Part shown: one piece after another, positions 16,415 through 57,054 of the stretch
How positions within the stretch are numbered: the first letter of the stretch is position 1
Layout: every line of letters begins with the position of its first letter
Assembly (NCBI GenBank): GCA_035221665.1
Contig: CM069139.1
Span: forward strand, 61,566,001-61,630,000
Direction: 5' to 3'
Origin: Okamejei kenojei
Taxonomy: Eukaryota
DNA: 64,000 nucleotides
Program-made: the position numbers and the translations under genes
The notes under the pieces: model-generated
Told to the model about the DNA's origin: nothing
The model's database searches: none
The model's input: the letters and a program-made list of their open reading frames with translations, nothing else

Positions 16415-16457
16415 TGGCTCTCAGGATGTTTTCCTTGCTGCTGCAACGAGACTGGAC
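16415..16457 (-). CDS. GPHN: Gephyrin constitutive 43-nt linker exon ([14 protein letters not shown] + 1 nt)
   Basis: Minus strand reads ctccttgcag|GTCCAGTCTCGTTGCAGCAGCAAGGAAAACATCCTGAGAGCCA|gtgagt, with canonical splice sites. The peptide matches the gephyrin linker segment ...[23 protein letters not shown]... as I recall it. Confidence 0.95.
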
Positions 16458-16883
16458 CTGCAAGGAGAATGGACAGTATTTATAAAATTTACACAATGCA
16501 TTGAAAGTTCAAACATACATACATGCAGTGAGTTGCACACAATAGATCATGATGAACAAAGCTGGATCACCACCATGAAATGACTAGTTTGTGCAAGAAT
16601 GCTACAATGGGAAAGCTTATGATTCTTCATCCTAGAAATATTAAAATGTAAATGAGTGAAATCTGGAAAACCCATCAAAATGGAGGCAAAACGTTATTCG
16701 ACAGAACATAGTAGCTCAAAATAAGTTTGCTTCAGATCTGCTGAGCACAAGTAGCCATGAAAACTGCATGAAGGAATAAAAGGTTGTCAGAAATGAATGT
16801 GACATGTTGCAGTAAACTAATCCATGTAGAAGGGCTTGTGTGTTCTGGATCTAGCAATTGCCTTTCGAAATAAATGTATAGAC

Positions 16884-16929
16884 ACATGTGCACACATGCG
16901 TGCACGCACACACACACGCACACACACAC
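16884..16929. repeat. (CA)n-type microsatellite between C4d and the VQSR exon
   Basis: Imperfect cacacacac tract, which reads (UG)n in the GPHN pre-mRNA. Confidence 0.85.
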
Positions 16930-17163
16930 TAGACACAAAACAGTAAGAATTACACCATAAATTAAATAGAAAGGTCTAAATGTGGAAATGATAACTGAAA
17001 CATTCTAAGACAAATGTTAAAGGCACAGACTAGTGGACAGTGTTAAGGTGGGAAAAACAAACAATCAAGAATCTTCACATAGATAGAATAGCAAGGAGCT
17101 AGAACTCATAGCGCAAAGCAGAGTTTGCGAATGGTAGCAGCTCCTTTGATCAGTAATAGTTAC

Positions 17164-17226
17164 TCGTGAGTTGTATCCTCTATGCCTTCTGAGTTCATCT
17201 TTAAGCCCTTCCAACCTATGGTGGAG
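17164..17226 (-). CDS. GPHN: Gephyrin alternative cassette exon, C4d-like, 63 nt (LHHRLEGLKDELRRHRGYNSR)
   Basis: ttttgtttttgtttacacattag|CTC CAC CAT AGG...TCA CGA|gtaact. Phase 0-0, 21 codons, no stop. Resembles the 21-aa mammalian cassette (LHxRLEGLKDEL...) and lies just upstream of the VQSR exon. Confidence 0.88.
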
Positions 17227-20200
17227 CTAATGTGTAAACAAAAACAAAAGATTTATAATGAACAGAGAAGCTCAGAAATCTAAGATTTTTTTTGAAAGAT
17301 GAACTACGTAAACAAAAGAACTAATGAGAGGTATATTATATGTTTGGCCTTTTTACAATTTTCAAACACACTTGCTACCAACACACGAGAAAACATGCAA
17401 ATTGTGGAACCACCAGCATTAACCCACACACAAGACAGGAAAAAACAGGCAGGATCTGCTTGGCAATTCAAGCAAAATAAGAGCATGAAGCACAGAGGAA
17501 ATTAAAAGAACAAACATAAAACAAGTATCAATTTTACTGCATGCCACGTTCCCCACTATAACCCTAAATCATTATACGTTTGCACAATACTTTCAGAAAT
17601 TAAAACCTGAACATGCCTTGTCCCCGTAGGTTAGTGTCCCTCTCACTTTCTTTAGAAGAGTGTTTTTTAAAAAACGTTTACACCACCCCTATCTTCTGAC
17701 CTATCGGTATAAAGAGAATGACAGATCTGCACAGTTACTTCTGTGCAGGTTGGAATGAATCAAAACTGAAGTCTCCTTAAGAGACAACAATAAAACGTTT
17801 TTAGGTGTATGATTGGGATTAACTGAGTTGCCAGAACTATACATTTTTACAAGGCTATAAACATACTATGGAAGATTCTTTCAGTTACATGAAAAGAAGA
17901 ACAAAGGAGAGAAAAAGAATGCTGACTGAATGAAGCAATCCAATTGCTTTGTCATCTGTTGTTGACATTTAGCTAGGGTGCGAGTAGTGAACATCAGCAC
18001 AACCGATTTACAACACAAAGAAAACATAAGCTTTTAATGAGCCGATGAAATGGATATAATGAACTAGCAACATATGTATTTGCCCTTTTATCTTTTATTA
18101 TTGTCATTAAATGCGTTAACTAGTCCACCTGTCAGTAAGCTGGATAATGAAAAGCAAATTTAGACAAGAAAAAATTAATGATGCAAGAAAAGGAACAAGA
18201 GAAGTCCAATACAAAGGTAGTGAGACATGATAAATTAAAGTAGAGAAATGTACAACTCATCTCAAATAATGAAATAACATGTCTCAATTTGTGTTAAAGT
18301 ACAATGTTGTGCTGAAAGTAAATACTTGACCACATGATCACACTCAATTAGTTGTCAGCTAAATCAGCGATATGAATGCCAGCCTGAACAATATTTTTCA
18401 GATACACCTATGCAGGTATGTTCATTGACAAATGAGACTTAAAGTAATGTTGATAATTATTCATGCTTTTGATCCGTTAAACATCATACTTTAAACCACG
18501 TTAACAATACTTGGTCTACCATTACTTGGAAGGATAAATGATTTAATTGCAAATCGTCATAATGAAGATCAGGGATTTAGACAGCCACAACAGTATCATA
18601 GCAACACTAACAAATTTCCATTCTAAAAATGTGCACAGGATTTAGCCAATTATTTTCTTTATCTGCTGCTGCTGCTTTCTTGAATATATATTTTTGTCTG
18701 TTGTATGTTTTGATATGTCGTTTCTTCATACCAGTAAATCCTTATATAATTATTTTTTTATAAAATAACTTCTGGAAGTCCACCTTTGTCAATAGTTGAC
18801 AATAAATTAATGTTACATTGGATGAGCATCAGTGAAAAACCCTATTGCTGTTTTTAAACAAGAGTGAGCAGATGAATCCTCATAAAACAGCAGGGATTAT
18901 AGTTTGTTCTAATTGTAATCTTGCACTACATCCACTGAATTTATATTTAACTTCAAAATGGAATATGCACATCATAGGTAAGGCCAATATTTATTGCCTG
19001 TACATAACTATCCAGACGAAGGTGATAATTCACCTTTTCCAACAGCAGCATCCTGCATGATAGAGGCACATTCACAATACTGGATAGGAAAGTTCCACTT
19101 TATTGATTCAGCAATGTATTCCTGTGGCAGATGATTTGGAAGGGGGAGCGAGAGGGGATGGAGGTGGGGGAATTTTCAAGATAGTGATGTACGTTGTCGC
19201 TGTTCATCTTATTGGTAGAGGTCATGAGATGAACTGACAAGGAATCTTGGCGAATTGTTGCACAACATTTAATTGGTGGTAAAACTGCGGGTATACAACA
19301 CTGTTGATGGAATGAGTGAAGTTTTAAGGTTGTGAATGGTGAGACAATGGAGAAATTATCTCATTACATCCTTGTCATGCTCTGAAGGGGTTTCAGGAGG
19401 TTTGCCATTCACCTCGTAAACTCAAAGCCTCTACCAACATTAAGAACAAAGGCGGCAGGCCCAGGGAAATACTAACTGTTAGTTCCCTCCACATCACATA
19501 CCATGCTGACTTGCAAATATATTATTCATTCATTGTTGATAGGTCTAAATGCATTGCGCGAATAAGGGTGGCAGTGATTCAAGCAGATGGCTTATGATTC
19601 TTTTCTTAAGGACAATAAATGTTCGTGTTTCCAGTGACACATTATCCTGAAAAAAGAATAAACTGATAACAAATGGCTGGTCCAATTAAGTTTCTGATCA
19701 ACGATGATTGTACCGGCACGGTACTGAATGGGGATTGAACAATAGATTAAGACTTTGGACATCATAGGAAGAAAGAGTTTGGATGCTACTATACAAGTAC
19801 CAGCCAATTTACACCCTTGTTGGGCAGATATTGCCTGGTACTGGTAATGGACACACATTGTCTTCTCTTGATCAGTCCAAGCCTGAATGTTAATCTTGCT
19901 GCATGCTAACAAAGAATGTTTCATTATCTGTTTTTGAGAATTGCTGTCTGAGATCAATAGTCTCCAGTTAACAATACTTAGTTATGTGTGTAACAACCTT
20001 CTTAGAAAAAGCTGTGCCACAGTTAAAATGCAAAAACAGCAACAATATAAAACCTACTGAACAGTTTCTTGTGCATGATATTGTAGTCTTTCAACCTTTT
20101 TTGGGAGAAGAAAATAAATTGCATCAAGAGGTGGAAGGTTTATGAAGTAAACGCACAAGTTAAGTATTTATACCTGTGTAATGGGAGTGGTACCAGTGAT

Positions 20201-22399
20201 ACTTTGTGCTAAAAATAATACCTTTAAAACAGTGAACCCCAGCCACAAATTCCTAGAAATTTTAGGCAATTGAGATACAATTCCAAAGGAAAGTACATTC
20301 ACAGGACAGAAACCTAATACTGCATTGGGTTTGTAGGTACATCACTGGGCCTCAAATTGTATTGTATGATGACAGGTCGCAACCTGCTGTTGATAGATGC
20401 CTTAAACTCAAAGATGAAAGGACTGCACCAAAATGGCACAAAGCCTGCATATCATGGAAATAAGGTGAGAAGTGATGCAAAAATGATTTTGAGGGTTAAC
20501 ATGCTTTCACCTGATGGAAAGGATGAAACAATCCTGATTCCTTTCAGTACCTAAATAAGATAATTATTTGTCTTTGAGGAAAATATTTATTGCAGTTTCA
20601 TGTACTTTGCACCATTCTCGGCTATACAGACAATTTAAAGAAGGAACCATACCAATTCTGCTCTTAAAGTTGCATATAGAGCAGAAATTAGAAGAGATGA
20701 TAAATTTATCATCATGGAACAGTTGTCTTACTGCTCCCTGATGCAGTTATTTCTAGGGTAAAAATTTCAACTGGTATTATACATACAAATACTACAAAAT
20801 TTAAAAGATGAATATTCCTTACAAATGGTATCATGACAAATGCATTGTGAATCCACTAACCATTCATAATGTAAATTTTATCCAGTGAAAGATTTGATCT
20901 CTTAGTTCCTCTTACCTATCAAAATGCTGTTTGCAAGTCTTCATACTGATATTAGCAATGGTTTATTATTGTCAAAATACAGTGATAAACTTTGTTTTGC
21001 TTGTTATCCATCAAACCATACAAACATAAACACGTCAGGTAGTGTAAAAAACAAAATAAAGTGAAGAATATAGTGTTACAGCTACAGAGGAAGTGCAGAT
21101 TTTAAAAAGTGTAAGGGTGGCAATGAGAAGAATTAGAAGATTGAGATCTTCACCCCTAACACACGAGAAGTTCTATTTAGAAACAGAATGACAATTTTAT
21201 GATTAGGGTCAAAATATAAATGTCAACTATTTCCAACAACATAAGCATACTGAAAGTATATTAGAATAATATCAAGGTATTCTGACAATTGAATATCTAA
21301 AAAGGTTCCACCCATGATTAGATACAAATAATTTGATCTTTAACCTGTTCCCCTAAAGTACTGTTTGTTAGTTTGACAGTTCAAAGCATACCATATTGAT
21401 TTTCTTATTCTTCATAGGTGAATGGAGTTTTGTAATAATTCAGAAGGGAGGCAAGATAGATTTAGCTATAGAATATCCAACAAAATTAGCACTGGAGTAA
21501 GCTTCCGATGCAGCAGTCTTAATTGTCTGGCATGCAAAAGTTTCTAATTTGGAACTGGCTCCCAAAGGGCATTAAACCAAATACATGCTGTTTTACAACT
21601 ATTTTAGTTAAGATTAAGTGTTATGCACAGGGTATTAAAAGAAATGGAGTAAAAGCAGTATACTTCTAAAACCTTGCCTTTTCTGATGTTGGATTAAGTA
21701 AATGGCAAACAAATCTGAAGAAGTGTTTCGGCCCGAAACGTTGCCTATCTCCTTCGCTCCATAGATGCTGCTGCACCCGCTGAGTTTCTCCAGCATTTTG
21801 TGTACCCTCGATTTTCCAGCATCTGTAGTTCCTTCTTTAAAACAAATCTGTAACACCGACTATCTTCAGATGATCAATGTGAACTGGAACACTGCAAGGA
21901 CAGTCAATTATGCCAGCAGTGGAGTGTGAACAACTGCAAAGGAAACTAATTTGTTGCTGAGGTCAATGTTATACTTGATATTTTAGAAAACAGATCTGTG
22001 AATTTTGAGATTTGATGATGCATGAAATATTATAAAAGATGCATAGTTATAAAATATGCAAAAAAGATTAAACAATGCACACTCAAAAGCATAAGGAGTT
22101 CATGGTTAATCCGAATTAAAGACACATATGCTCAAATGGAACTTACAGATATATCACAAAAAACTAACATTAAAAAACACTCTACAGTTTTTCAATCCTT
22201 TCAGTACTGGTAGTAAATTATTTTTGCATGGGGACTTCGAATGAACAGAAGGATATACATGTAGTCTTTCAAATTGTGAAAGCCAATTCCAAACCAGAAA
22301 GTGAAATAAACCAGTTTTGATTGAACCAAGTCAAATGTGAGAAATTATCCAAAGAAAAATTGGAAGACATGTCTATAAATCAAGGCACTACAAGATTAG

Positions 22400-23015
22400 A
22401 CTTTAGGCTTTAGAGATACAGTGCAGAGATAGGCCCTTTAGCCCACCGAGTCCATGCTGACCAGTGATCACCCCATACACTAGCACTATCCCACACATGG
22501 GGGACAGTTAACAACTTTACTGAAGCCAATTAACCTACAAACTTGTACATCTTTGGAGTGTGGGAGGAACCCGGAGCACCTGAAGAAATGTGGTCACAGG
22601 GAGAACATACAAACTCCATACAGATAGCACCCATAGCCAGGATCAAACCTGGCTCTCTGGCGCTGTAAGGCTGCAACTCTACCGCTGTGCCGTCCACTAA
22701 AAATAACCTTTGCATCAGAAGTTTAGATTAGTTTATTAGTTTAGGGATACAGGGTGGAAGCAGGCCCACCGAGTCCACACTGACCAGTGATCACTTGTAC
22801 ATTAGATATATCCTGCACTCTAGGGACCATTTACAGAAGCCAATTTACCTACAAACCTGCAGGTCTTTGGAATGTGGGACAAAACATGAGCACCCGGAGA
22901 AAACCAACATGGCCACAAGGAGAAGGTACAAACTCCATACAGACAGCACAGTTAGTCAGATCGAATCGGGTTTCTATCACTGTACAGCATGAATTCTACC
23001 ACTGCGTCACAACGC
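22400..23015 (-). mobile_element. Two tandem V-SINE-type SINEs (about 22400-22695 and 22720-23015)
   Basis: Each has the ttagagataca...ggcccaccgagtcc tail and the tctttggartgtggga core. Confidence 0.82.
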
Positions 23016-23279
23016 CTAAACCCTCTGGGAGGAGGGGAAAAAGGGGGAGAATATGTAATTAATCCACGCCTGGTCGTTTCCTGTGGAGAACATGCATGAA
23101 AATAGCTTGATTGCTAATTACCCTGATATCATCTATACAAAAAATGCCATAAATGTTCAGCAGCTCGGGCAGCTTCTGCAAAGAGGGAAACAGAGTTAAT
23201 GTTTCAGGTCGAATATCAGACTTTCACCATGATTTCAGTGCTCAAACAGCACATAATTCATTGTTGATCACCTCAGAGA

Positions 23280-23915
23280 TGTTGGGAGGTTTTTTCTGAA
23301 TGGTGAGTTTAAAACTAGGTGCCTTGGTAAAGATTGGAGTTGATTGTTTACGATGGAAATGAAAATAAATATCAATGGGTTGTAAATCTTTTGAGTTCCC
23401 CAACACAAAGCTCAGTCATTGGGGATTGAGTATTTGACAAGGTGCTGCATCAAAAGATTGGTGTATAAATTAAAAGCCCAAAGACTAGAGGAAGTGTACT
23501 AAAATAGATTGAAAACTGGCTGTCTCATAGAAAACTGTTGAAATGTTTTTCAGACTGGAAAGAGGAAATTTGGGATCAGTTCTTGCCAGAATAATTCATT
23601 ATTTAACATTAAAGATCTGGAGAAGGGAACAGCTGAAAGGTTTTGAAACTTGCCAATGATTCTAAAATTGTTGCAGTCATTTTGTAGTAAGGATACAGTG
23701 ACTGCAACTCTGCACAGAATGAACCGTCAGGGGTGGTAGTGGAGGCAGTTACGATAGAAGCATTTAAGAGGCTTTTAGATTGAAACATAGATTTGTAGGG
23801 TACGGTGGGATATGGATTTTGGTGCGGATGGGAGGAGATTAGTTCAACTTTGCATCATGCTCGGCAATAGCATTGTGTGCCGAAATGCCTGCCTGTGCTG
23901 TACTGTTCTTTGTTC
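23280..23915 (+). mobile_element. Old CR1 fragments
   Basis: Degenerate tttgacaaggtgctgcat (FDKV.H) and a CR1 3' UTR (ccgaaatgcctgcctgtgctgtactgttct). Confidence 0.65.
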
Positions 23916-24920
23916 TTATATATTGTTGCCTTGAATATTAAATTAGTATATTTGTGACACAAAACAGGATGCTGAACATCAAATCTTAATGGTATGCAAA
24001 TGCTCACCGACGTCTGACATTGTGGATACTTCTGGGAGGTTTAATAACTAATGCACTAAAAGCCCAAATACTTTTGAGTGAAACCGATATCAGAATTCCA
24101 ATTTATCTTGTCATCGACTATTGAACAAATAACTTAAATCTGCTTGTTTGTCTGCTGAGTGGTTTTCTGTAGGCATTAAGATTGATTCCTCTATGTTATC
24201 GGGCAAAGTACAGGGAATTATAAATATTAATCAAATACCAGTCACTATTTTTTCCAAACTTCCGGATTAGAAATTGTAGATGAGATAAATTTAGCATAAA
24301 ACCATTGTTATGCATCTGTTTGGAGATCTGATTCAATAATTTTTTTCAAGAGAAGCACCAGCAAAATGTTATTGAGTACTTCTGCATATATAGAAGTGCA
24401 TGCTAAATTAAAAATACTTTTCAATAAAACTCAAGAAACCTAGGCAAATGAACAGCTCAATTTTAAGCTGCTTGTCTTAAGTTGAGGAAAAAGTAAAAGC
24501 AAGTCTTGCAGTTTTAGTTGCACTTCATTAGTTGTTCTACCATTCTGAAAAAAAGCTGACATACTTCAGGAATTAAAAAACATACAAAATGTTTGTGATG
24601 TCCACAATGTTGCCATTAACGTCCATTTTAATTGGAGTAAAAAGACTATTAACCTAAATAAAGGTATTTTCTGAACTAGAATTCATTTAAATCATTTTGA
24701 TTATTTTATTTGAAGATTTCAGTCTCATTCAAGCATTTGGAACCAAAATGATGCACCCCAGCAATAGCCACGAGATACCTTAGCTCTTGCTACAATACTT
24801 TCACTAGTTCATGCAACAGTGGAAGATTCTCCATTATCTCTCCAGCATTTGTTGCTAATAGTGAATCCTCCCTAACACAATTTCAGTTCCGCATGTGTTA
24901 GCTGACCTCGACTCATCATT

Positions 24921-25226: not shown

Positions 25227-25602
25227 AAGTCATCACTTTGCAACTTCGCAACGTCCAGATGGTGATCAATAAGGTTGTCACTGATTGGCTGCTTAGTTTG
25301 ACAAATAAGCTCTCTGCAAATGAAATTCAAATGTTTTGTCAGTAGAAGAGTGATTACATGAGATTTGGAAAGAAAAGGAAAGCCAAGTTAGTGCTCAAAT
25401 TAACAGCTGTGAAGACTGCAGTGCATGACGATCACTTAACAAAATGAAATCTAGGTTTATCAGGGTTTTGCTTCACTGGTAGTTGATGCAGGTACTATCG
25501 CAACGTTTAAGAAAAATTCGACAGGTACATGGATAGGATAGGTCTAGAGGGATATGGGCCAAAAGCAGGCAGCTGGGACCAGTGTAGATGGGGCATGTTG
25601 GT

Positions 25603-29922: not shown

Positions 29923-32839
29923 ATAGTCACTCTCTATTCTGCTTATGTATGGTACACAAAGTAATTTTTGCAGATCCAATTGTGGGTTGCCTCTGGGTGC
30001 TCTGGTTTCCTCCCACATCCCAAAGGATAGGTGGGTGCATAGACTAATTGGTCTCTGTACAATTGTAGGGAGTAAATGTGAAAGTATGGTTACATAAAAC
30101 TAGTGTGACGGGTGATCAATGGTTGGCATGGAGTTGATGGGCCTGTTTCCATGTTGTAGATAAGATGATAAGGTCAGGGCCAATAGTGAACGGGGTGAGA
30201 GAGGAGGTGAATACCGAAGTCAAAGTGTTGTATATGATTGCGCGAAGTATAAGCAATAAAGTGAACAAGCTTGAGGCTCAGTTCGAAATTAGCAAGTATG
30301 ATGTTGTGGGAATTACAGATACATGGCTGCAAGAAGGCCAGGGCTGGGAACTGAATATGCAAGGGTATACATCCTTTCGAAAAGACAGACAGGTGGGCAG
30401 AGGGGGAGAGGTAGTTCTGTTGGTGACGAATGAAATTCAGTCCCATGCAAGGGGTGACATTGAAACAGAAGATGTGGAGTCAGTATGGATAGAACTAAGG
30501 AATTGTAAGGGTAAAAAGACCCTAACAGGATTTATCTACAGGCCCCCAAATAGTAGCCTGGATATAGGGTGCAAGTTGAATTAGAAGTTAAAATTGGCAC
30601 GTCATAAAGGTAATGCTACGGTTGTTATGGGAGATTTCAACATGCAAGTAGACTGGGAAAATCAGGTTGGTACTGGACCCTAAGAAAGGGAGTTTGTGGA
30701 GTGCCTCCGTGATGGATTCTTAGAGCAGCTTGTACTGGATTTAGTGTTGTGTAATGAACCGGATTTGATAAGGGAACTTGAGGTTAAGTAGCCATTAGGA
30801 GGTAGTGACCATTTTACTTCGGAGTCACGTGAGTGACTTCGTGAAGACCCCACCAGCACGCATGCGCGACATATCGTCGCTCGCATTTGCAGTCAACAGA
30901 GACTTGTTTGCTTACAGAAACGATGGACAGGAAGTCCAGAATGAAGGCATCGAAGCATGCCTCCAAGGACTGCGGGACTTCGGACAGGAGTCAGCGGCCG
31001 CAATCCCCGGAGCTGCTCCTCCACCGGCAGCACCCGCACCGCGGGCCTGGAAAAGAACGCGGAAGTCGGGGAGACCTGTTCAGTCGGCAGGACCCGACTG
31101 TCCACCACAGCAGGCCAGGGAGCTGCACATTGGTAGGAGGCCCGCGCGGGAGCAGGGTAGGCAAGACCCTGACTCCCTACCGCTTTCACCCGAACAACAC
31201 CGGGCCAGCGGGAAAAAGGTGCGTAAACCCGTGCCTCCTTCAACGGCACGTTCCATTTCCCCTCTATTACAGGTCACCAGAGGGCGGACCAGGGGAAAAA
31301 CCGCACCGAAGTCGAGTAGCCCCGCTGCAGCGGCCGGCACCGACTCACCACCGGCACAGTCCGCCAGATCGCGGGCCAGTGGTAGTACATAAAGGTCGTG
31401 TGGCCCCGCAGTAGCCGCTGGCAGCGACTTTGCGTCGCATCAGTCCCATATGACTGGGACTGGCGGCAACCCCGCGCGGATGTCGGGGAGCCCCGATGAG
31501 GCGGCTGGCACCGACTCACCACCGCTGCTGTCGTACCAGACAGGCGGACCGCTTCAGTCCGGAAGACTGAAGTCCGGAATAACTAGCGGCAAATCCGCGC
31601 GGGAGTCGTGTAACCCGCAGGAGCGGCAGGCAGCGACTACCTACCTAGGTTCCCGAGACATCACTTCGACGCAGATAGCCGCGGCGGTCGCATGGCTCGT
31701 ATGGAGCGTATGGTGGAGCAGCTGCTCAAACGGGACCTTCTCCAACAAGAGCGGGTGTCCCTAGGATCTAGGAGACACACAGCAGGACCACTAAGTATCT
31801 CTCCCTCGTCAATAGGGAGTGCCAGAAGTCAGCCATTAGCTGACTTTGAAGAGGGGTTGGCACAAGAACCGGTGTTGCCAGAGATGCCTGAAGAGGAACT
31901 ACTGGAGGTAGTATAAAAATTCGCCCAACCAGGACAATCTGGGCAACCTCTTCAGCCCAAACTAGCGGCCAGCATCAATTACTTAACCACACACCAGCTG
32001 CGGGAACAGGTGTTTACGGAGGCTATAAACAAGTACAAAGCTCCGGGTAATTGTGTCGCTCAATGTCCCGACCGTCAACACACCCATCTGGGGTAACATG
32101 AGTCCCGGGATCAGGGCCCATGAATTGAAAATTCAGAAAATCCTGAAATTGTTGACCTTTGCCAGGTCCATAGACGGGACGGACATGACGGAGGAGCAAC
32201 AGGATGCACTAGCGTTGCTGTGCAATACACAGTATGAAATCAACTGTTTTCGCAAGAAGAGCTACCAAAACATTATTCGAGAAACTAGGATTTGTCATCA
32301 ATCCAGACAAATCTAAGTTCAACCCTTCTGTGGTTATGGACTTTCTGGGATACACAATTAACACCAATCTTATGATTGTCACTATCCCAGGGGGCAAAGC
32401 AACAGACATAATAGAGGCATGTAACAGCCTTGCTTGCGCCAAGAAATCGACTATTAGACATGCTGCTGAGGTGATTGGGAAGCTTGTAGCTACATTTCCA
32501 GCTGCACAATTTGGCCAATTACACTATCAAAACTTGCAAAGAGCAAAAATCTCAGCATTAAAAGCAAATGCTGGACATTTTGACAGGCCTATGCAGCTGC
32601 CAAACAAGGCGCAAATTGAGCTACAATGGTGGATTAGCAATGTTTGTGATTGTTTTAATCCCATCATTATATCAAACCCATCAGTCGTGTTACAAACCAA
32701 CTTCCAGTTGTGGCGGCAGGTGGGATTTGCATGAGTCTACTCTTCTTCAATCACAAGGTATAAACTATTTGGAATGCTGGGAGCATTTCACGGGCTGCGG
32801 GCTTACTGCACTAATCTGCATCATACGCATGTCCGTCTT

Positions 32840-33261
32840 AACCATATATAACCATATAACAATTACAGCACGGAAACAGGCCCTCTCGGCCCTTCCAGTC
32901 CGTGACGGCCATTTGTTTTCCCCTAGTCCCATCTACCTGCACTCAGACCATTCCCCTCCATTCCCTTCCCGTCCATATACCTATCCACTTTACTTTTAAA
33001 TGTTAAAATCGATCCTGCCTCCACCACTTCTGCTGGAAGCTTATTCCACACAGCCACAACCCTCTGAGTAAAGAGGTTTCCCCTCACATTACCCCTAAAC
33101 TTCTGTCCCTTAATTCTCATGTCATGCCCTCTTGTTTGAATCTTCCCTACCCTCAATGGGAAAAGCTTATCCACGCCAACTCTGTCTATCCCTTTCATCA
33201 TTTTAAAGACCTCAATCAAGTCCCCCCTTAACCTTCTGCGCTCCAAAGAACAAAGACCTAA
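32840..33261 (-). mobile_element. Short young CR1 3' end inserted in the DIRS RNase H
   Basis: TSD CGTCTT at 32834-32839 and 33262-33267. Removing the insert restores CAT GTC CGT CTT CAA ATA GAT AAT (HVRLQIDN). Highly similar to 37436-37858. Confidence 0.93.
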
Positions 33262-33421
33262 CGTCTTCAAATAGATAATACCACTGTGGTCGCGTATTTA
33301 AACCATATGGGTGGTATCAAGTCAATATCTTGTGATGAATTAGCAAATTTAATTTGGCTCTGGTGTATTGAAATAAATATTTGGATATCAGCTACGTACC
33401 TTCCGGGTAAAGCTCAATACA

Positions 33422-33877
33422 GTGGCGGACACCAGGTCACGAGTATTTAATGACAACATCGAGTGGATGTTGAACCCCCAAATATTTGCTAAAATTATAG
33501 CCAAATATGGAACACCAGATATCAACCTCTTTGCGTCCAGGTTGAACCATCAGATACCAACATATGTCTTTTGGGAACCAGATCCTGGGGCAATGGCGAT
33601 GGACGCATTCTCGCTACATTGGGGGAAATGGTTTTTCTATGCATTTCCCCCATTCTGCCTCATCAGTTGGGTATTGCAGAAAATTCAACTAGATTCTGCA
33701 ACAGGTATACTGATAATACCTGACTGGCCCACACAATCATGGTACCCGGTGGTCCTCAACATGATAAAAGAAACATGGGCACAGGTTACCAAATGCCCGA
33801 ATTTGGTGACCAATCCCATAACAGGGGAAAATCATCCGTGCCATGGTCATCTGAACCTGTTGGCTTGCAGGTTCTGA
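33422..33877 (+). pseudogene. DIRS DAM-like methyltransferase domain (C-terminus of a broken pol ORF)
   Basis: EWML...INLFASRLN...DAFSLHW...YAFPPF...IIPDWPTQSWYP, typical of DIRS1 methyltransferase domains. Confidence 0.85.
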
Positions 33878-33915
33878 GGAGGCCACTACTGTAATTCGGG
33901 CTGTCATCAAGAACC

Positions 33916-34830
33916 ATGGACATCGTTACAGCATCGTGCAGAGAGTCCACAAGGAAACAGTACCTCACCCACATCAGGAAACGGGAGGCCTTCTGTAGTC
34001 GGACCAAGACCACCTACAACTCTGCTACGATCACCAATGTGCTGGAATTTCTCGCGGGCCTTCATTATGATGAGGGCCTCAGTTACAGTGCCATAAACAG
34101 TGCCAGGAGTGCGCTGTCATCCTATCTCAACATTGGAGTGGGATCTCACCAGCTGGTATCCAAACTAATGAGGGGTATATTCAATTCCAACCCTCTCCGA
34201 CCACGATATAATATTACCTGGGATTTTAGGGTGGTGTTGACCCTACTCAGGAGCCGTTCGCTTATGACGGGATTACCACTGGACAAACTCACCTTGAAAG
34301 TGGTGTTGTTAATGGCACTGACCACTGCACAACGGGTCCAGACTCTACAGAAACTAAAACTGGATAGAATGGTCTCGACTCCCAATAAAGTGACTTTCTT
34401 TATAGATGAGTTGCTTAAACACAGACCTGGGACTACAGGACGGAAATTGGAATTCCTAGCATATCCCGTTGATGTAAGACTCTGTATAGCCACCCATATC
34501 CGACATTATATTAATGTCACACACACCATCAGGAAAATGGAGACGAGTCTGTTTATCAGCCATAAGAACCCACATCACAGGGTGACGGTGCAGACTATCT
34601 CCAGGTGGCTCAGGGTGGTATTGGGTGCAGCAGGTATGGACACTAACATTTTTAAATCTCATTCCACCAGGGCTGCATCCACATCAGCGGCGAGAACCAT
34701 GGAGGTACCCATGGATCATGTCCTCGCAACAGCGGGCTGGGCCAGTGAAACTACATTTCAGCAGCTTTATAATAAGCCTGTGGCCGCTCCCGCAACGTTT
34801 GTGGAATCAGTTTTAAGTGCTGTTCCCTAA
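33916..34830 (+). CDS. DIRS tyrosine recombinase, open 304-aa frame
   Basis: Catalytic set R (TAQRV), HxxR (HSTR), W (AGW) and Y (LYNKP), preceded by an N-terminal core-binding domain. Confidence 0.9.
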   Translation: MDIVTASCRESTRKQYLTHIRKREAFCSRTKTTYNSATITNVLEFLAGLHYDEGLSYSAINSARSALSSYLNIGVGSHQLVSKLMRGIFNSNPLRPRYNITWDFRVVLTLLRSRSLMTGLPLDKLTLKVVLLMALTTAQRVQTLQKLKLDRMVSTPNKVTFFIDELLKHRPGTTGRKLEFLAYPVDVRLCIATHIRHYINVTHTIRKMETSLFISHKNPHHRVTVQTISRWLRVVLGAAGMDTNIFKSHSTRAASTSAARTMEVPMDHVLATAGWASETTFQQLYNKPVAAPATFVESVLSAVP

Positions 34831-35435
34831 ATGTTTATCCCCGAGTTAGGGGTTTATTGTTTGTATTAATAAATACGTTATTATTTTTCAGCTTGTTCAA
34901 GTCTGAAATACGTTAACTTACTTCCTCCATCAGTAATTAGGCAGTGTGAGCATGGACGTGGTCCAGGGCATGGAATCACAGAGCTTTGAAATCTTCACGA
35001 AGTCACTCACGTGACTCCGAAGTAAAATAGTAGGATTAAACGAGAACTTACCAGTTTGAAGTTTGATCCTTATTTTATGAGGCGTTACGATGAGGGATTT
35101 CGTGCCCTCCGCTCCCAACCCTCTATTATAAGGTCAACTGGTATATAGAGTCTCTTAAATCTTACTATCTTCAGTCATTGTTGTTATCTGTGATTTCACA
35201 CCGCTGCTTCCCTCATCGTAACTCCTCATAAAATAAGGATCAAACTTCAAACTGGTAAATTCTTGTTTAATCTTACTATTATATGTTAAGTTTTAATCTA
35301 CAATTTGAGAGGGATAAGGGTAAATCGGAGGTGTCAGTATTACAGTTGAACAAAGGGGACTATGGAGCCATGAGGGAGGAGCTGGCCAAAGTTGACTGGA
35401 AAGATACCCTAGCAGGGATGACAGTGGAACAACAA

Positions 35436-37858
35436 AGTGTTGTTTGGAGTTTGTAAAATGTGTGCAGGATAGTTTTTTGCAGCAGTACATAGAGGTATCG
35501 ACCAGAGAAGGGGCAGTGCTGGACCTCCTGTTAGGAAATGAGGCAGGTCAGGTGACGGAGGTATGCGTTGGTGAGCACTTCGGGACCAGTGATCACAATA
35601 CCATTAGTTTCAATATAATTATGGAGAGAGTCAGAACTGGACCTAGGGTGGAGATTTTTGATTGGAGAAAGGCTAACTTTGAGGGAATGCGTAAGGATTT
35701 TAAAGGAGTGAATTGGGACACTTTGTTTCATGGGAAGGATGTAGAAGAGAAATGGAGGACATTTAAAGGGGAAATTGTAAGAGTACAGAATCTTTATGTC
35801 CCTATTAGGTTGAAAGGAAATAGTAAAAATTGGAAAGAGCCATGGTTTTCAAGGGAAATTGGACACTTGTTTCGAAAAAAGAGAGATATCTACAATATTT
35901 ATAGGAGGCATGGAGTAAATGAGGTGCTAGAGGAGTATAAAGAATGTCAAAAGAATCTTAAGAAAGAAATTAGGAAGGCTAAAAGAAGATATGAGGTTGC
36001 TTTGGCAAGAAAGGTGAAAGTAAACCCAAAGGGTTTCTACAGCTATATTAATAGCAAAAGGATAACGAGGGATAAAATTGGACCATTAGAGAACCAGAAT
36101 GGACAGCTATCTGCAGAGCCAAAAGAGATGGGGGAGATATTGAACAATTTCTTTTCTTCGGTATTCACCAAGGAGAAGGATATTGAACTCTGTGAGTTAA
36201 GGGGAAAAAGTAGTAGCTATGGAAACTATGAGATTCAAAGAGGAGGAAGTACTGACACTTTTGAAAAATATAAAAGTGGATAAGTCTCCAGGTCCAGACA
36301 GGATATTCCCTAGGACATTGAGGGAAGTTAGTGTAGAAATAGCAGGAGCTATGACAGAAATATTTCAAATGTCATTAGAAACGGGAATAGTGCCGGAGGA
36401 TTGGCGTACTGCGCATGTTGTTCCATTGTTTAAAAAGGGTTCAAAGAATAAACCTAGCAATTATAGACCTATTAGTTTGACCTCAGTGGTGGGCAAATTA
36501 ATGGAAAGGATACTTAGAGATAATATATATAAGCATCTGGATAAACAGGGTCTGATCAGGAACAGTCAACATGGATTTGTGCCTGGAAGGTCATGTTTGA
36601 CAAACCTTCTTGAATTTTTTGAAGCGGTAACTAGGGAAATTGATGAGGGTAAAGCAGTGGATGTTGTCTATATGGATTTCAGTAAGGCCTTTGACAAGGT
36701 TCCCCATGGAAGGTTGGTTAAGAAGGTTCAATCTTTGGGTGTTAATGGCGGAGTAGCAAGATGGATTCAACAGTGGCTGAATGGGAGATGTCAGAGAGTA
36801 ATGGTGGATGGCTGTTTGTCAGGTTGGAAGCCAGTGACCAGTGGGGTGCCTCAGGGATCTGTGTTGGGTCCACTGTTGTTTGTCATGTACATCAATGATC
36901 TGGATGATGGGGTGGAAAATTGGATAAGTAAGTATGCAGATGATACTAAGATAGGTGGTGTTGTGGATAATGAAGTAGATTTTCAAAGTCTACAGAGAGA
37001 TTTGGGCCATTTGGAAAAGTGGGCTGAAAGATGGCAGATGGAGTTTAATGCTGATAAGTGTGAAGTGCTACATCTTGGCAGGACAAATCAAAATAGGACG
37101 TACATGGTAAATGGTAGGGAATTGAGGAATGCTGTGGAACAGAGGGATCTAGGAATAACTGTGCATAGTTCCCTGAAGGTGGAATCGCATGTAGATAGGG
37201 TGGTAAAGAAAGCCTTTGGTGTGCTGGCCTTTATAAATCAGAGCATTGAATATAGGAGTAGGGAAGTAATGTTAAAATTGTACAAGGCATTGGTAAGACC
37301 AATTCTGGAGTATGGTGTACAATTTTGGTCGCCTAGTTATAGGAAGGATGTCAACAAAATAGAGAGAGTACAGAGGAGATTTACTAGAATGTTGCCAGGG
37401 TTCCAGCAACTATGTTACAGAGAAAGGTTGAACAAGTTAGGTATTTATTCTTTGGAGCGCAGAAGGTTAAGGGGGGACTTGATTGAGGTCTTTAAAATGA
37501 TGAAAGGGATAGACAGAGTTGACGTGGATACGTTTTTCCCATTGAGGGTAGGGAAGATTCAAACAAGAGGACATGACATGAGAATTAAGGGACAGAGGTT
37601 TCGGGGTAACGTGAGGGGGAACTTCTTTACTCAGAGGGTGGTGGCTGTGTGGAATGAGCTTCCAGCAGAAGTGGTGGAGGCAGGATCGATTTTAACATTT
37701 AAGAGTAAAGTGGATAGGTATATGGACGTGAAGGGAATGGAGGGGTATGGTCTGAGTGCAGGTAGATGGGACTAGGGGAAAACAAATGGTCGGCACGGAC
37801 TGGAAGGGCCGAGAGGGCCTGTTTCCGTGCTGTAATTGTTATATGGTTATATGGTTAT
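35436..37858 (+). mobile_element. Young 5'-truncated CR1 LINE, ORF2 with a single frameshift
   Basis: ORFs 35444-36283 and 36219-37775 (518 aa, complete RT with YADD). Tail (ggttatat)n. TSD AACAA at 35431-35435 and 37859-37863. Confidence 0.95.
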
Positions 37859-44921: not shown

Positions 44922-44963
44922 CTCTGTAGCACAATAAGAAGGTGTGCATGAAGAGAGCTCAGC
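44922..44963 (-). CDS. GPHN: Gephyrin alternative cassette exon, C4c-like, 42 nt (AELSSCTPSYCATE)
   Basis: ttttcttttcccttgctgcacaaccag|GCT GAG CTC...ACA GAG|gtacac. 14 codons, phase 0-0. Aligns without gaps to the recalled mammalian cassette ARLPSCSSTYSVSE (A, L, S, C, Y, E shared). Confidence 0.8.
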
Positions 44964-45962: not shown

Positions 45963-46034
45963 ATTTACTTTGAATGAGACTCCTTTCACATTTCCTTCCA
46001 GCTAATCTTTGAGTTCATTCAGCTTTTGATGGTA
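45963..46034 (-). pseudogene. GPHN: Gephyrin C4b-like cassette with in-frame stop (YHQKLNELKD*LEGNVKGVSFKVN)
   Basis: tatatgtag|TAC CAT CAA AAG CTG AAT GAA CTC AAA GAT TAG CTG GAA GGA AAT GTG AAA GGA... Aligns to the recalled mammalian LHRKLEELRDxLEGNVKGYSLRVN. TAG at 46004-46002. No GT after codon 24, but AAA|gtaaat follows codon 22. Confidence 0.82.
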
Positions 46035-48534: not shown

Positions 48535-48684
48535 GTCAAGTGGCTAGGCCATTCTGTATGACTGTAGTGTGAAAAGGCTGCTATGAATGTAATGTCAAAA
48601 CATATTCAAAGGTATCTCAAAATAGGTAGAGATAGATTTGTTATTCTTTAGGATTTATCGGTATTTTATGCTGTATATCCACTG

Positions 48685-49263: not shown

Positions 49264-51875
49264 TGGTATTCAGTTTTTAAGATTATCTCAAATATAAATG
49301 ACACAGTAATAAGCTCAGTTTTCCCTCAAGACTTTTCTGATTAGTACTAAGCCGATTCTGTTGAAATTATTATTGATGCATGTATGGGTAATGTGAATTG
49401 TAAAAAAAATATTTTAATTAGCTATGCACATTCTTTTTGGTATTTTAACTTACCTGAGATTTAGGATAAAAGGATATAACACCATAGAAAGAAGCCTGTA
49501 CCTGATTATTGATAGAGCTATCAAATTTCTCCAAACTCCCTGCTGTTTGGTGATAGATGTGCCTTAAATTAATAAATGTACAGCTCGTAAATAAACAGCA
49601 ATGCTTTCTTTAGTTTAACTGTGTTAAATTCTCAGTGCAGCATACATTTCTCAAATAACTCAATTACCACCAATTATCAAGTAATGTAAACTAATAAATT
49701 AAACGTACACCTGTGTTCTCTGTGTTGCCACCTCATAATCTGTTTTGATGCCTTGTACTGGCATTTCTTTGGATATTCTTGTAATCCTATGTGATTTTAC
49801 CCAATTCCTTCCATTTGCTAAGATTTTAAGATCCACTTACTTGTATGTCTCACAATCCATACTTCCACATTATTTCAGCACTACCCATATCCTTGGAAAA
49901 TTCCTGTAGTCCATGATCCCTAATAAGCACCGATATAATCTGTCGGGTTCATTCAAATTTATTTTATGAAATAACTTTTACCTTAGTAACAAAAAGCAGC
50001 AATTTTGAGTGGTGTGATTCCCCAATCTCCTGTGCGTCAGCGTGCTAAGGACAAATTGAACGCCAACACCACTTCTTAGCTGAGATCAGTGAACCCAACA
50101 GAGGTCAGAAAATAGAAAGCTCTGCGCTGCAGTACTTAGTTCCATATCAAGCAATGCAATGATTCACTGTGCCATGAGTGGTGAGCAGCTAAGTATAATG
50201 GGGATCGTGAAAACAATTTAATTTCATTACAATATTTGAGTTGGTTGCTTTGACTGTTTGGATATGAGCCTGATGTGACCATTGGTTTAGCATTATTCAT
50301 CTTAAAATGGGATTGAAATTATTGGTTTAGCAAAATTCACCTTAAAATGGGATAACTAAACTTAATGCCCTACCATTACCGCAATTTTGTTGCCGACTAC
50401 AATGTAGCATCCTTGTATTTTTATGAGGGATTTGGGGCTAGATGGTTTTAAGGCATAAATACCTTAAATAGATTTCAGACAGACATTTTTACATGCCAAC
50501 AGCTCAGAACTCATGTTAGGAATTCTCATATCTGTCTCATGGCAAAAGAGCTGGAGAGGCACTTAGAAAGATATGTATTGAATTATCTCTTTGGGTTAGA
50601 AACCATCCAGGCTAGCTAAAATAATCCAATGCTCCCCATATTCCCATTTTTGCCAAACATTTGTAGAACAGAACTCATTATACAATGATATAATGTCTGA
50701 GCATTTTCATTTTGGTACAATCATAAAGCAGTTCATTGGTCAAGCATAGTTAATATGCAAATCATTAACATCAAAACGTTAATTTATTTTGGATACCAAA
50801 AGGCTTTCACAGATGAAACAAACATATTTAAGTTATTATAATCTTCACATTTGGGGACTAAGGAGCATTATGTCAAGTTGCTAAAACCAACACCAAAAAA
50901 TAACACAGCAAGCTGTCTTTCTTTTGACTTAAATAAATAATCTATTGGTGTGGTTATACATAAAGGACTACTTTAAAAATAACTTCCTTCATATTCATTT
51001 AGTAAAAAAGCTGCAACATAAAATTAGTAAAGGTGAAGGAAAGGAGTGTCCTTTTAACTATGAAACAGTAAATAGGATGGAAAGGCAGAGAAGACACTGA
51101 ACACAGAAGTAGAAATATCCCCCTCTGGTCCAATCCCTCCCTACCTATCTCCAAGCCACCTCACAGGCACTTCCTCTCTTCCATTTTCCAGGCCCCCACT
51201 CCCTCATCTTTACTACGGATGTCTAGACACTCTACCACTCCACCCCCAACAAGGAAGGTCTTAAAGCCCTCCGTTTCTTACTTGACCGCAGAACCAGCAA
51301 ATTTCCGTCTACTAACTCTCTCCTCCGTTGTTACAGGCCCTTACCTGTAACAACTTCTTCAACTCCTCCCACTTCCTCCAAATCCAAGGCGTAGTTATGG
51401 GCTCTCGCATGGGCCCAAGCTATGGCTGCCTCTTTGTAGGGAATGTCGAACAATCACTGTTCCAGGCGTACACTGGCCCTATCCCCAAATTCTACCTCAG
51501 CTACATTGACAACTACATCAGTGCTACCTCCTTTCACCCATGCAGAACTCACTGACTTCATCAACTTCACCACTAATTTCCATCCTACACTCAAATTCAC
51601 TTGGACCATTTCCGACATCTCCTTATCGTTTCTAGATCTCACCGTCTCTATCACAAGAGAGACTATTGACTGACATCAATTACAAATCCACTGACTCCCA
51701 TAGCTATCTAGACTACACTTCCTTTCTCCCTGCATCCTGTAAAGACTCTATCCCCCTACTCCCAATTCCTCCGTCTAAACCGCATTTGTGCGCAGGATAA
51801 TGTTTTCCATGCTAGGTAGGATGATGTTTTCCATGAGATATCCTCATTCCTTAGGGAACGGGGGATTCCCCCTTC

Positions 51876-52176
51876 CTGGAGCGGAAAACCCATGGGGGGC
51901 CAAAGGGGACACGTCCCCTCCATGTTTTGAGAGGTGGGGGACATCCCCCCTCAAGTTTTTGTAATCCGGATTTTAAAATCTCCGCTTTCTGCGAGACAGT
52001 GGAGGTGGGACTGCTGATCGAGGGCGCCGATTGGACAAGAGAGACGTCGGTCAGCGGGCAATGAGGGCGGGACATGATGTGGGTGAGCATGTGCATGTGT
52101 GGGTGAGTGCGCGCATGGCCACCAAAAATTTGTGTCCCCCGTCCCCTCCATGTTTTTATAGTGAGTTCCGCTCTTG
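51876..52176. mobile_element. hAT MITE
   Basis: 8-bp TSD CCCCCTTC at 51868-51875 and 52177-52184. Imperfect TIRs CTGGAGCGGAA and TTCCGCTCTTG. Subterminal direct repeat gtcccctccatgtttt. Confidence 0.8.
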
Positions 52177-52433
52177 CCCCCTTCCATTATAGATGAGACT
52201 CTTACTAAGGTCTCCTCGACATCCCGCAGCTGCGCTCTTGCTCCCCCTCCCCCCATTGGTAACAATGACAAAGTCCCCCCTGTCTTCACCCTCCACCCCA
52301 TCAGCCATCGCACACAACATATAATCCTCCAACATTTTCGCCACCTACAACGGGATCCCACCACTGGCCACATCTTCCCATCTCCACCCCTTTCTGCTTT
52401 CCGTGGAGACCATTTCCTCCACAACTCCCTGGA

Positions 52434-55400
52434 TGTAGAGTAGGTACACGGACACCTTAAGGTCTTCACTACTTTATTAATCATACATCATATAGCCCTA
52501 GCTGTACGTGGTCTGTCACGATCACCAGAGAGAGAGCTAGGGGCGTGTGGGTTACAATTATACTAACTGGTGGGGGGGGGGGTTGGTAGCATGGACATCG
52601 TCAATATCAATTAAAGGTGTATACACATCATCTACATCCTTCCTCTACCAAAACAAACAGTGAGTGACAGGGCGACCACGTCTCATGTGCTAGGGTAAAT
52701 GCAAACAGTAAAGCACGGGAAAACAGAATCACATGTAATCGCCGTAACAGACCGGCGGCCTGACCAGGCGACCAGACCGGATCCGCACCTCGCCATCACC
52801 TCCTTCCCCGACGGGAACAAGCGGGGACACCGGGGCATGGTGGGGGTTACGGACAGGAGAACCCCTGGGTGACGAAGGCATTGGGGGGGACGGCGAAGAG
52901 AAGGGTGAGGAAGCCGGAGAAAGCCGGACAGCAGCCGGGAGGAGGACAGGAGGAGGACGAGTGGGGGGGTTGGCCCCAGAGGAACGGGCAAAGCACTGGG
53001 CCGCGACAGTGGCAGCAGGGGGGCATACGGAGCCGCCGGGGGACGGAGAGGCTCGTTCACGAGCCGGAGATGCTGACGGGACCGGCGGTACACCCTTCCA
53101 TCGTGGTTGACAAGGTACGAACGAGGGGAACCGGCAGAACCGACGACCATGGCCAGCTTGGAACGGCCAGAAGTGGACCTCATACAGACGACCTGGCCGG
53201 GGAGAAGAGAGCGGAGGACGCGGCAGGACCTGTCGTGGGAACGCTTCTGTATACCGTGTTTTTGGGCAATGCGTTTCCGGACCAAGGCAGGTTTAAAGAC
53301 GGAGGGGGACAGAGACTGCTGAGACACCGGGACCGTGGGCCTCATGACTCAGGACATGAGTCGCTGAGCCGGGGAGCCCAGGGCATGGTCGCGGGAGATG
53401 TTGCGGAGGTTCAGCAGGGCCAGGTAGATGTCGGAGCGGGATAGGCGGCAACGTTCCAACAATCCTTTAGCACTGCGGACCGCGTGCTCGGCCAGTCTGT
53501 TGCTCTGCGGGTATTCCGGGCTGCTGGTGTAATGACGAAAGTTCCATCGTTCGGCAAAAGCGCGGAACTCGGCACTGGTGAACTGGCTGCCGTTGTCCGA
53601 CTGCAGGCTGGCCGGTGGGCACGAAGTTAACGTTTAGGACTATCAGATCAGACGTCTCGTATGGATGCCGGGTTGTGGATGAGAGAGGCGCCCGAGACAG
53701 CAACAAACATGTGAAAGTGAAGCGTTGTAGCTGGAGCATCATGCGCTGGAGCCGGGAGGAGGCCATGTGTATCGGCTTGTTGAGGATGGTGACCAGAGGT
53801 TTGTGGTCCGTCTCGACAGTGAAGCAGTTGCCCAGGATATAGTCTTTGAATTTGGAGCAGGCAAAGTCAACAGCCAGTAGCTCCTTCTCAATCTGGGCAT
53901 AGTGTTGTTCAGCGGTCGTCATTGTGCGGGATGCGTAGGACACAGGCAGTTGCACCCCGTCATGGATCTGCAGGCAGGCGGAGGAAGCGATACCTGCCGA
54001 AGGGCGTTCTGAAGGTCGTCAGGTGCGAGGATCGCTCGTCTAGAGGTATCTGCCAGAACGAACTCTTGGCATCAAGAACCGAGAACACGGTGGCAGGGCC
54101 GACCTGTGCAGCAACATCCTCCACCGTCCGCATGGGATAGTGCGGGCACCTGATGGCCAAGTTCAAGTCCTTAGGGTTGATGCAGATCCGTATTTCGCTC
54201 GTCTTTCTTCGCAGCGACAACCATAGTAGAAACCCACCGGGTGGAGTCCGTTACTGGCTTCAGAATGCCCGTGGCCACCATCTCGCGAAGAGCAGACTCG
54301 ACCTTGCCCCTCATGGCGAAGGACACACGGTGCGAGGCACAGATGACCGGCGTGATTGAGGGCAATCCTGTAGCTGCAGGGCAACTTCCCCAGCTTCAAG
54401 TCAAGCCGGTCAGGGAATTCGGCCAGCGGATTCAGGGGTGCCTCTACCAGGTGGACATCACTGTGGAAGCTCACCACTCCGAGGTCCTGGCAGGCCTCCA
54501 CGCCGAGCAGGGGGTCACATTTACCGTCCAGCAGGGAGGGGCCGAGAGGTCTTCAGCACCTTGCAGTGGAGAGTGGCCATCCCCACAGGAACAAGTACGC
54601 ACCCCCATAGGCATGCAAAACAGCACTGTCTGTGGAAACGGGCTCATTATTTCTTATCTTCCTGAACAGGCTTGTTAACATAACATTAGCAGCAGCCCCC
54701 GTATCCACCTTAGCAGAGAAGGCCATGCCATTCGGACGGTCGGGTCCGTTATCAGAGCAGCTGCACCTCGCAAGGAAAACACACTCAGCTCGCTTTGAGA
54801 CGAGTCAGGGTCAGACGGGGGGAGATCATCGTGCTGGAGATGGGAACCAGACGCTGTATCATCACGTGTCAGGTAGCGAGACGGTTTCTGCTGTGGCTGT
54901 GCAGGGTTCCCACGGGAACGGCATGCTGCCGAGAAGTGGTTGGGCTATTTGCAGAAATTACAGGTTTTCCCTAACGCTGGGCACACATTAGAACGGTGTG
55001 AAACAAAGTTACAATTTGGACTTCGTTGAGGCGGTCTGAAGCCCCGCAGTGGGCTTGCCCTCTGTCGCCGGGGAGCATTGTACAGCGAGACTGACTGCGT
55101 GGACCACCGGGTCAGGTACAGCGGAGGAGACAGCCTCAGCTAAACGAGAGGCATTGAATGTCAGATCAGGCTTACGCAGCAGCTCAGAGCGCAGCTTATC
55201 ATCCCGTAGACCAAAAACCAAGATGTCACGGGTCAAAGTATCAGGGGTCAGAACATGCAGGTCACATCGGCGAGCCAGTTGGCGCAGCGCGGCCACGAAA
55301 TTGTCAATAGATTTCCCAGGGTTTTGACGTCGGGAGAACAATTTGAAACGCTCTAAGATGTGGTTAGTGGGAAGGTCACACATCGCCGTAAATTTAACAA

Positions 55401-55942
55401 GCAGACATACCGGGTCCTGGACACTCTCACCCTGTCCACAGATGAATGACTCCGAACGCTCGAGCACTTCGGGACCAGCTACATTGAGCAGCAGGGAAGC
55501 CTTGACTGCGGGGGCCACAGCAGGGTGAGCGATTGTAACATAATGCTCAAAGTCATGTCGGAACACACACCAGCGATGAGTGATGTCTGCATCGAAGACT
55601 AGGATGTCAGGTTTACGACAGGCAGAAGCCATCACGGCACAGGGACTAAAAAAATAAAACGCGATAGACTAGAGACGCAGAAAGAAGCACTTCCGACTGG
55701 AGGCGTGGGTTCGTATCCCACTTCTGACACCATGTAGAGAAAGTACACGGACACCTTAAGGTCTTCACTACTTTATTAATCATACATCATATAGCCCTAG
55801 CTGTACGTGGTCTGTCACGATCACCAGAGAGGGAGCTAGGGGCATGTGGGTTACAATTATACTAACTGTTGGGGGGGGGGGGGGGGTGGTTAGCATGGAC
55901 ATCGTCACTATCAATTAAAGGTGTATACACATATCATCTACA
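52434..55942 (-). mobile_element. Gypsy/Ty3 LTR retrotransposon A (Mag-like), internally deleted
   Basis: TG..CA LTRs at 52434-52636 and 55733-55942, TSD CTGGA, tRNA-Leu PBS and PPT AGAGGAAGGA. Gag ORF 55009-55635, plus fragments of RT (VLDAKSSFWQ), RNase H (YAQIEKELLA) and integrase. Confidence 0.95.
55698..55732 (+). other. Extended PBS: 35-nt copy of the tRNA-Leu 3' half including CCA
   Basis: TGGAGGCGTGGGTTCGTATCCCACTTCTGACACCA abuts the 5' LTR. Vertebrate tRNA-Leu(CAA/CAG) ends TGGAGGCGTGGGTTCGAATCCCACTTCTGACACCA as I recall it. Confidence 0.88.
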
Positions 55943-56800
55943 CTGGACAACTCGTCCTTTCCCACCAAAACCACCCCCTCCCCAGGCACCTTCCCCTGCA
56001 ACGGCAAGAGATACAACACCTGTCCCTTTACCTTCCCCCTCGACTCCATCCAAGGACCCCAACAGTCTTCCAAGCTCTTCCAACCTCATCTACTGTATCT
56101 GCTGTTCCAGGTGTCAACTCCTGTATATCGGCGACACCAAGCGCAGGCTCGGCGATCATTTCGCTAAACATCTCTGCTCAGTCTTAACCTACCCGATCTC
56201 CCGGTTGCTCAACACTTTAACTCCCCCTCCCATTCCCAATCTGACCTTTCTGTCCTGGGCCTCCTCCATTGTCAGAGTGAGGCCCAGCACAAATTGGAGG
56301 AACAGCACCTCATATTTTGCTTGGGTAGCTTACACCCCAGCGGTATGAACATTGACTTCTCCCATTTCAAATAGCACTTGCTTTCCCTCTCTCTCCATCC
56401 CCTCCCCCTTCGCAGTTCTCCCACCAGTCTTACTGTCTCCGACTACATTCTATCTCTGTCCCATCGATTCCCCTGACACCAGTCTGAAGAAGGATCACGA
56501 CCCGAAACGTCACACATTCCTTCTCTCCAGAAATAATGCCTGAATTACTCCAGCATTTTGCGTCTACCAGTAGAAATAACATTTTCTTCAAATTCTGAAC
56601 CTGAATAAATAACACTAAAGTCAATATGAAAACATATATAGGGTTCAATTGCAAAATAGTTTTAAAAAAGCAACTGAAGCTGAAAACTGCAGGTTTTGGA
56701 AAAATGGGAGGCAATAGAGAAAGTAGGTACAAAATGATAAAGCAGAATTTGGGAGTGAACTGTGTAAACAAACTTGCAAAAAGTTTGTGAACATATTTAC

Positions 56801-57054
56801 TTTAATGCCCCTGTCCCACTTAGGAAACCTGAACGGAAACCTCTGGAGACTTTGTGCCCCACCCAAGGTTTCCGTGCGGTTCCCGGAGGTTTTTGTCAGT
56901 TTCGATCTTTAGGGAGACTGACAAAAACTTCCGGGAACCGCACGGAAACCTTGGGTGGGGCGCAAAGTCTCCAGACGTTTCCTAAGTGGAACAGGGGCAT
57001 TAGGGATCCGCCTCTACTAGCAATTCCTTTCGCTTCATCTGCACTTCAAAGTTG
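56801..57054 (-). pseudogene. GPHN: Gephyrin C4a-like cassette remnant (QL*SADEAKGIASRGGSLK), split by a MITE
   Basis: 57054-57000 translates as QL*SADEAKGIASRGGSL. Removing the MITE at 56806-56999 and one 3-bp flank restores ...GGA TCC CTA AAA|gtaaat. 12 of 19 residues match the recalled mammalian QIRRPDESKGVASRVGSLK. The acceptor reads taa instead of tag. Confidence 0.85.
56806..56999. mobile_element. Palindromic Harbinger-like MITE inside the GPHN C4a exon
   Basis: TIRs TGCCCCTGTCCCACTTAGGAAAC...GTTTCCTAAGTGGAACAGGGGCA. Nearly the whole element is a hairpin. Flanked by TAA and TTA. Confidence 0.88.

Follow-up and report, generated by a model that had tools for sequence, protein, structure and literature searches.

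Does the gephyrin gene (GPHN) of Okamejei kenojei keep the whole cluster of C4 cassettes in the region that codes for the linker, and can all four cassettes still contribute to the protein? An earlier note on the 64,000-nt stretch of DNA analysed here (the window, contig CM069139.1) had placed five minus-strand exons in it and held two of the four cassettes to be dead. Our analysis indicated, with a probability of roughly 0.85, that the window is part of a working gephyrin gene carrying the C4 cluster and the next constitutive exon. As judged from the sequence, C4a and C4b would be skipped and decaying pseudo-exons without selection at the protein level, while C4c and C4d would still be optional in-frame inserts.

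Results

Placement of the exons

C4d was first seen as an open 63-nt exon (17226–17164) by splice-site enumeration, and a protein search with C4d and its read-through returned 45 candidates, 43 of them named gephyrins, 42 of which came from cartilaginous fish; the two unnamed matches were excluded from every count. An ungapped six-frame scan of the window, queried with the cassette peptides of named shark RefSeq proteins, placed each of the five exons uniquely: C4a at 57054 (score 69 versus 25 for the next best position), C4b at 46034 (72 versus 30, the runner-up being C4d), C4c at 44963 (76 versus 32), C4d at 17226 (115 versus 28) and the VQSR exon at 16457 (68 versus 23). The transcript order C4a, C4b, C4c, C4d, VQSR exon on the minus strand, which the earlier note had proposed, was thereby confirmed; it agrees with the order of the cassettes in the gephyrin protein, and the introns separating the five exons measure 10.8, 1.0, 27.7 and 0.7 kb in the same direction. 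The peptides proved homologous to linker inserts annotated in GPHN, and the suspected origin from a cartilaginous fish was supported by C4c, identical at 14/14 residues to shark, ray and chimaera and at 6/14 to bichir. The name micro-exon had to be given up, since the exons are 42–66 nt long and microexons are defined as 3–27 nt. Neither the preceding nor the following GPHN exons were found within the 64-kb window by the six-frame scan and other searches, and an Rfam scan of the window gave no matches. An assembly gap of 188 N lies at 14332–14519, downstream of the VQSR exon.

Intact exons and their flanks

C4c (44922–44963, minus strand, 42 nt, CAG/GTACAC) and C4d (17164–17226, minus strand, 63 nt, TAG/GTAACT) are both open and of phase 0-0, and the constitutive VQSR exon of the linker (16415–16457, minus strand, 43 nt, CAG/GTGAGT, phase 0-1) is intact as well. 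No residue differed from shark in C4c (0/14), C4d (0/21) or the VQSR exon (0/14; 0/49 in total), and the three peptides are identical to those of shark and ray RefSeq gephyrins wherever these contain them. Both cassettes thus passed the coding test of AG/GT borders, phase 0-0, open frame and conserved peptide, in keeping with what had been claimed for them, and they appear to remain under strict selection. The VQSR peptide matched a gephyrin chain of solved structure weakly (E=0.018), as expected for 14 residues. It also resembles the microtubule-binding repeat of tau, a likeness reportedly noted in gephyrin before.

Conservation at C4d extends into the introns. Read-through translation of the 3′ flank (17107–17163, minus strand) equals a chimaera gene model over 19 residues, the first 9 of which also resemble models from bear and turtle, and that of the 5′ flank (about 17242–17265, minus strand) equals chimaera models over 8 residues. 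The UniRef models that match these flanks seem to read into the intron by error, and the downstream flank is a probable splicing-regulatory element. The motif TGCATG, which we take to be an Rbfox site, occurred 3 times in the six 250-nt flanks of C4c, C4d and the VQSR exon, against a background of 0.082 per flank, and not once in the four flanks of C4a and C4b; YCAY counts around the cassettes were at or below background. Upstream of the VQSR exon, a 250-nt stretch (16458–16707) held 11 YCAY where 4.7 were expected, together with a TGCATG and a 102-nt stretch free of AG.

Lesions of C4a

The whole span of C4a, 57054–56801 on the minus strand, includes an insert. Its 5′ 54 nt (57001–57054) begin behind TAA in place of a YAG acceptor, the closest upstream AG being 49 nt off, and carry TGA at codon 3 and two missense changes, so that 3/18 residues differ from shark, the TGA included. 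A hairpin transposon of about 200 bp and MITE-like structure (56803–57002 including its flanks, unstranded) occupies the 3′ end of the exon; the last exonic bases and the old donor GTAAAT (56795–56802, minus strand, GT at 56800–56799) follow a few bases beyond it. C4a thus bears lesions of three kinds, a lost acceptor, a stop and an insertion, and failed the coding test of AG/GT borders, phase 0-0 and open frame. The stop had been claimed before; the AA acceptor and the transposon are damage beyond that claim. Seven AGs lie inside the old exon, none of them in phase 0, and the insert closes each of the three reading frames with stops.

The insert is short, non-coding and built of terminal inverted repeats, as in MITEs, with 26-nt arms 96% complementary and inner 69-nt arms 94% complementary, and only one full copy of it is present in the window. 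Its arms mismatch at 5/95 positions, whereas pN in the C4a exon is at least 0.07, which hints, weakly, that the transposon came in after the exon had died. The superfamily is presumably PIF/Harbinger. The insert shares with such MITEs its small size, lack of coding sequence, terminal inverted repeats and T/A-rich 3-bp flanks; it differs in that the flanks, TAA and TTA, are imperfect and unlike each other.

Several other elements lie in the window. The element at 14575–15258 has terminal inverted repeats, a clean TAA duplication and a terminal core in common with the C4a insert. The C4c–C4d intron contains a probable DIRS-type retrotransposon remnant (30799–34830, plus strand) whose tyrosine-recombinase ORF matched Phage_integrase (E=4e-8), and a LINE-type element at 35396–37775 (plus strand, antisense to gephyrin) has a reverse-transcriptase frame of 524 residues that matched RVT_1 (E=5e-36). 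Broken LTR-retrotransposon remnants with reverse transcriptase, RNase H and integrase flank C4a on both sides (52400–62900, minus strand).

Lesions of C4b

C4b (45969–46034, minus strand, 66 nt) retains its splice sites, TAG/GTAAAT. Its acceptor is weak, with a pyrimidine fraction of 0.55 versus 0.70–0.75 in the other exons, and no branch-like motif was found between −60 and −15. The claimed stop is present as TAG at codon 11 and is accompanied by six missense changes, giving 7/22 residues changed from shark with the stop included; at least 9/66 bases have changed, two of them within the first codon, and the exon failed the coding test for open frame and conserved peptide. We assigned the label C4b to the peptide by elimination. 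Its length is 22 residues in sharks, and bony vertebrates have two more, 24 in all. These two extra residues are VN, which is also what the donor GTAAAT present here (45963–45969, minus strand) would give on translation; this suggests that the C4b donor slid by 6 nt in one lineage.

Decay of dead and live cassettes compared

Taken together, the two dead cassettes had 10/40 residues changed versus 0/35 in the two live ones (Fisher p=0.0012; p=0.0054 when the stops were not counted). None of the 10 changed residues occurs in the intact peptides compared, 7 distinct ones for C4a and 8 for C4b, which range from sharks to mammals. The excess decay of C4b over C4a (pN 0.17 versus 0.07) was not significant (p=0.22) and lends no support to separate death dates for the two exons.

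Distribution among vertebrates

The chondrichthyan sample consisted of 56 named isoforms (23 shark, 26 batoid and 7 chimaera), which are cluster representatives chosen with a bias from the query words, so that absence of a cassette from these models is weak evidence. Intact C4a was present in 17/23 shark, 12/26 batoid and 0/7 chimaera isoforms, the batoid carriers being the stingrays Hemitrygon and Hypanus and the electric ray Narcine, and C4b in 5/23, 0/26 and 0/7, respectively. The skate Rhinoraja had C4a and C4b in 0/9 isoforms, and neither cassette appeared in those of two catsharks (0/6), Mobula (0/3) or Pristis (0/1). RefSeq gephyrins of the sharks Stegostoma, Chiloscyllium and Rhincodon carry the cassettes intact, C4b among them, in contrast to the decayed state of C4b here, and C4a is intact in the same three and in Hemitrygon, Hypanus and Narcine, again in contrast to the window. 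The presence of intact C4a in stingrays and the electric ray indicates that its loss is lineage-restricted. The lineage concerned would be the skates, whose repeat families the interspersed repeats of the window resemble. Inclusion of the cassettes varies among the RefSeq models of related species.

Among the best 120 of 1088 matches, 116 were bony-vertebrate entries, all of them with C4a and C4b by query design, and 64 of these 116 contained all four cassettes, the carriers including bichir, reedfish, lungfish, birds, a lizard and mammals. Since sharks and bony vertebrates share the four-cassette set, the cluster dates back at least to the origin of jawed vertebrates. The proposed origin in the jawed-vertebrate ancestor is to that extent upheld, as a minimum age only. 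C4b and C4c never occurred together in the 23 shark isoforms, a small and biased sample, and often do so in bony vertebrates.

Relationship of C4b and C4d

The C4b and C4d peptides were more similar than their shuffled versions (p=0.0002 in shark, 0.0026 in bichir), and the DNA of the two exons including flanks was more similar than random window segments (p=0.003). C4a, C4b and C4d share the donor GTAA(A/C)TAT, for which the minus strand of the window has no more than 6 sites; the three remaining ones are not exon ends. Homologous sequence, equal phase and similar splice flanks, as expected of tandem exon duplicates, were thus all found, and the two exons are probably tandem duplicates, of which C4d has survived and C4b has not. 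Searches of the window by blastn and with an HMM built from 16 distinct peptides detected no further C4b- or C4d-like exon. The similarity of the C4a and C4b peptides was weak (p=0.006 in shark and 0.036 in bichir, uncorrected for six pairs) and found no support in the DNA (p=0.17, 5′ part only).

Discussion

Proposed course of the loss

An optional in-frame cassette exon can be lost by being skipped and then decaying. C4a is unspliceable at its old borders, with its AG gone and its donor displaced by the transposon, and any inclusion of C4b would bring a premature stop into the transcript and probably expose it to nonsense-mediated decay. Both would have decayed after their inclusion had stopped mattering, and C4c and C4d would remain as optional inserts of 14 and 21 residues in the linker, which is disordered. 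Because the cassettes are optional and of phase 0-0, skipping spares the main isoform and the loss would be tolerated; redundancy with C4d may be the reason for the loss of C4b. Skipping in vivo and neutrality of both losses are what we infer from this arrangement. According to PMC9831149, the isoform P1, without cassettes, makes up about 60% of gephyrin transcripts in mouse neurons, and the C4 isoforms are mostly redundant in scaffolding. Against easy neutrality, the same paper describes C4a as the commonest C4 cassette in these neurons, at 19–21% of transcripts. Of the two exons, C4b would have died before C4a. A wider scheme, in which the C4 cluster is a family built by exon duplication that rays and skates pruned step by step, C4b going first and C4a later, is tentative, and we consider it somewhat less probable than its opposite.

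Other explanations

C4b may have acquired another use. Its remnant could be a regulated poison exon, included occasionally so that its stop triggers nonsense-mediated decay and tunes the dose of gephyrin at inhibitory synapses, a role that would need no conservation of the protein sequence and would agree with the retained AG and GTAAAT, the length still in frame and an intron read-through 3′ of C4b weakly like a turtle model. We regard this as improbable, given the weak acceptor, the lack of a branch-like motif and of a nearby TGCATG, and the at least 9/66 changed bases with two in the first codon; at such divergence, chance alone would be expected to preserve the four bases of the splice sites. 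Even less probable is a C4a that lives on in changed form through cryptic splice sites in the exon or the transposon. The seven internal AGs and the many GTs of the insert would offer such sites, but 0/7 of these AGs are in phase 0, the insert has stops in all three frames, and no insert of this kind occurs in the 9 Rhinoraja isoforms.

The damage might also concern the locus or the assembly rather than the two exons. If the linker region of GPHN had undergone segmental duplication and the window were the non-functional copy, with an intact locus elsewhere, the absence of flanking GPHN exons from it and the N gap at 14332–14519 would be accounted for. A dead copy would decay evenly, however, and here three exons have 0/49 residues changed and conserved intron flanks while two have decayed, which makes a duplicate very unlikely. 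Errors of assembly or sequencing are a scarcely credible source of the stops, since they would have to produce ten substitutions, the loss of an acceptor and a 200-bp insert with terminal inverted repeats in two exons and spare three neighbours. The preferred reading thus remains that of two skipped, decaying pseudo-exons in a working gene.

Meaning of the loss

The four-cassette set in sharks, bichirs, lungfish and amniotes is already public in RefSeq, and the loss alone seems to be new; the cassettes of cartilaginous fish, presented earlier as a discovery, do not count as one, given that RefSeq shark isoforms carry them intact. A search of titles and abstract openings, which included few subscription journals, found nothing on C4 cassettes of cartilaginous fish, on their loss or on a C4b/C4d duplication. 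Alternative splicing of zebrafish gephyrin was reportedly treated by Ogino in 2011. The accessible parts of PMC4925712, PMC8373072 and PMC11282723 contain nothing on C4 evolution, and GPHN is absent from the main text of PMC8373072.

According to PMC9831149, deletion of individual cassettes is needed to settle the functions of C4. A lineage without C4a and C4b is a natural double knock-out and suggests that both are dispensable, and the loss of one of the pair C4b and C4d would find a simple explanation in their duplication. The reach of the finding is limited to optional exons of one gene, with no linked phenotype and with an ancient conservation already annotated. The suggestion that half of the isoform repertoire was lost is right for the C4 cassettes themselves, of which two out of four have been lost, and overstated in that other cassettes exist. 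C4b, moreover, has not been seen in mouse brain either: it went undetected in the brain long reads of PMC9206673, and its peptide had no match in the supplements of that paper as far as these were available.

Comparison with known cassette systems

The cluster corresponds to mammalian C4a, C4b, C4c and C4d in its place before the VQSR exon, its order, its phase 0-0 and its homologous peptides, and the lengths of mammalian C4a, C4c and C4d, 19, 14 and 21 residues, equal those of this cluster (PMC9831149). In mouse, a different 14-residue insert lies between C4a and C4c/C4d (PMC9206673, file 5 of the supplement); no motif match to it was found in the window or in the gephyrin proteins compared. 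The difference from the mammalian cassettes lies in C4a and C4b, both decayed here. Compared with known lineage-specific losses of cassette exons, the present case involves two exons in one cluster, whose cassettes are otherwise near-invariant across jawed vertebrates.
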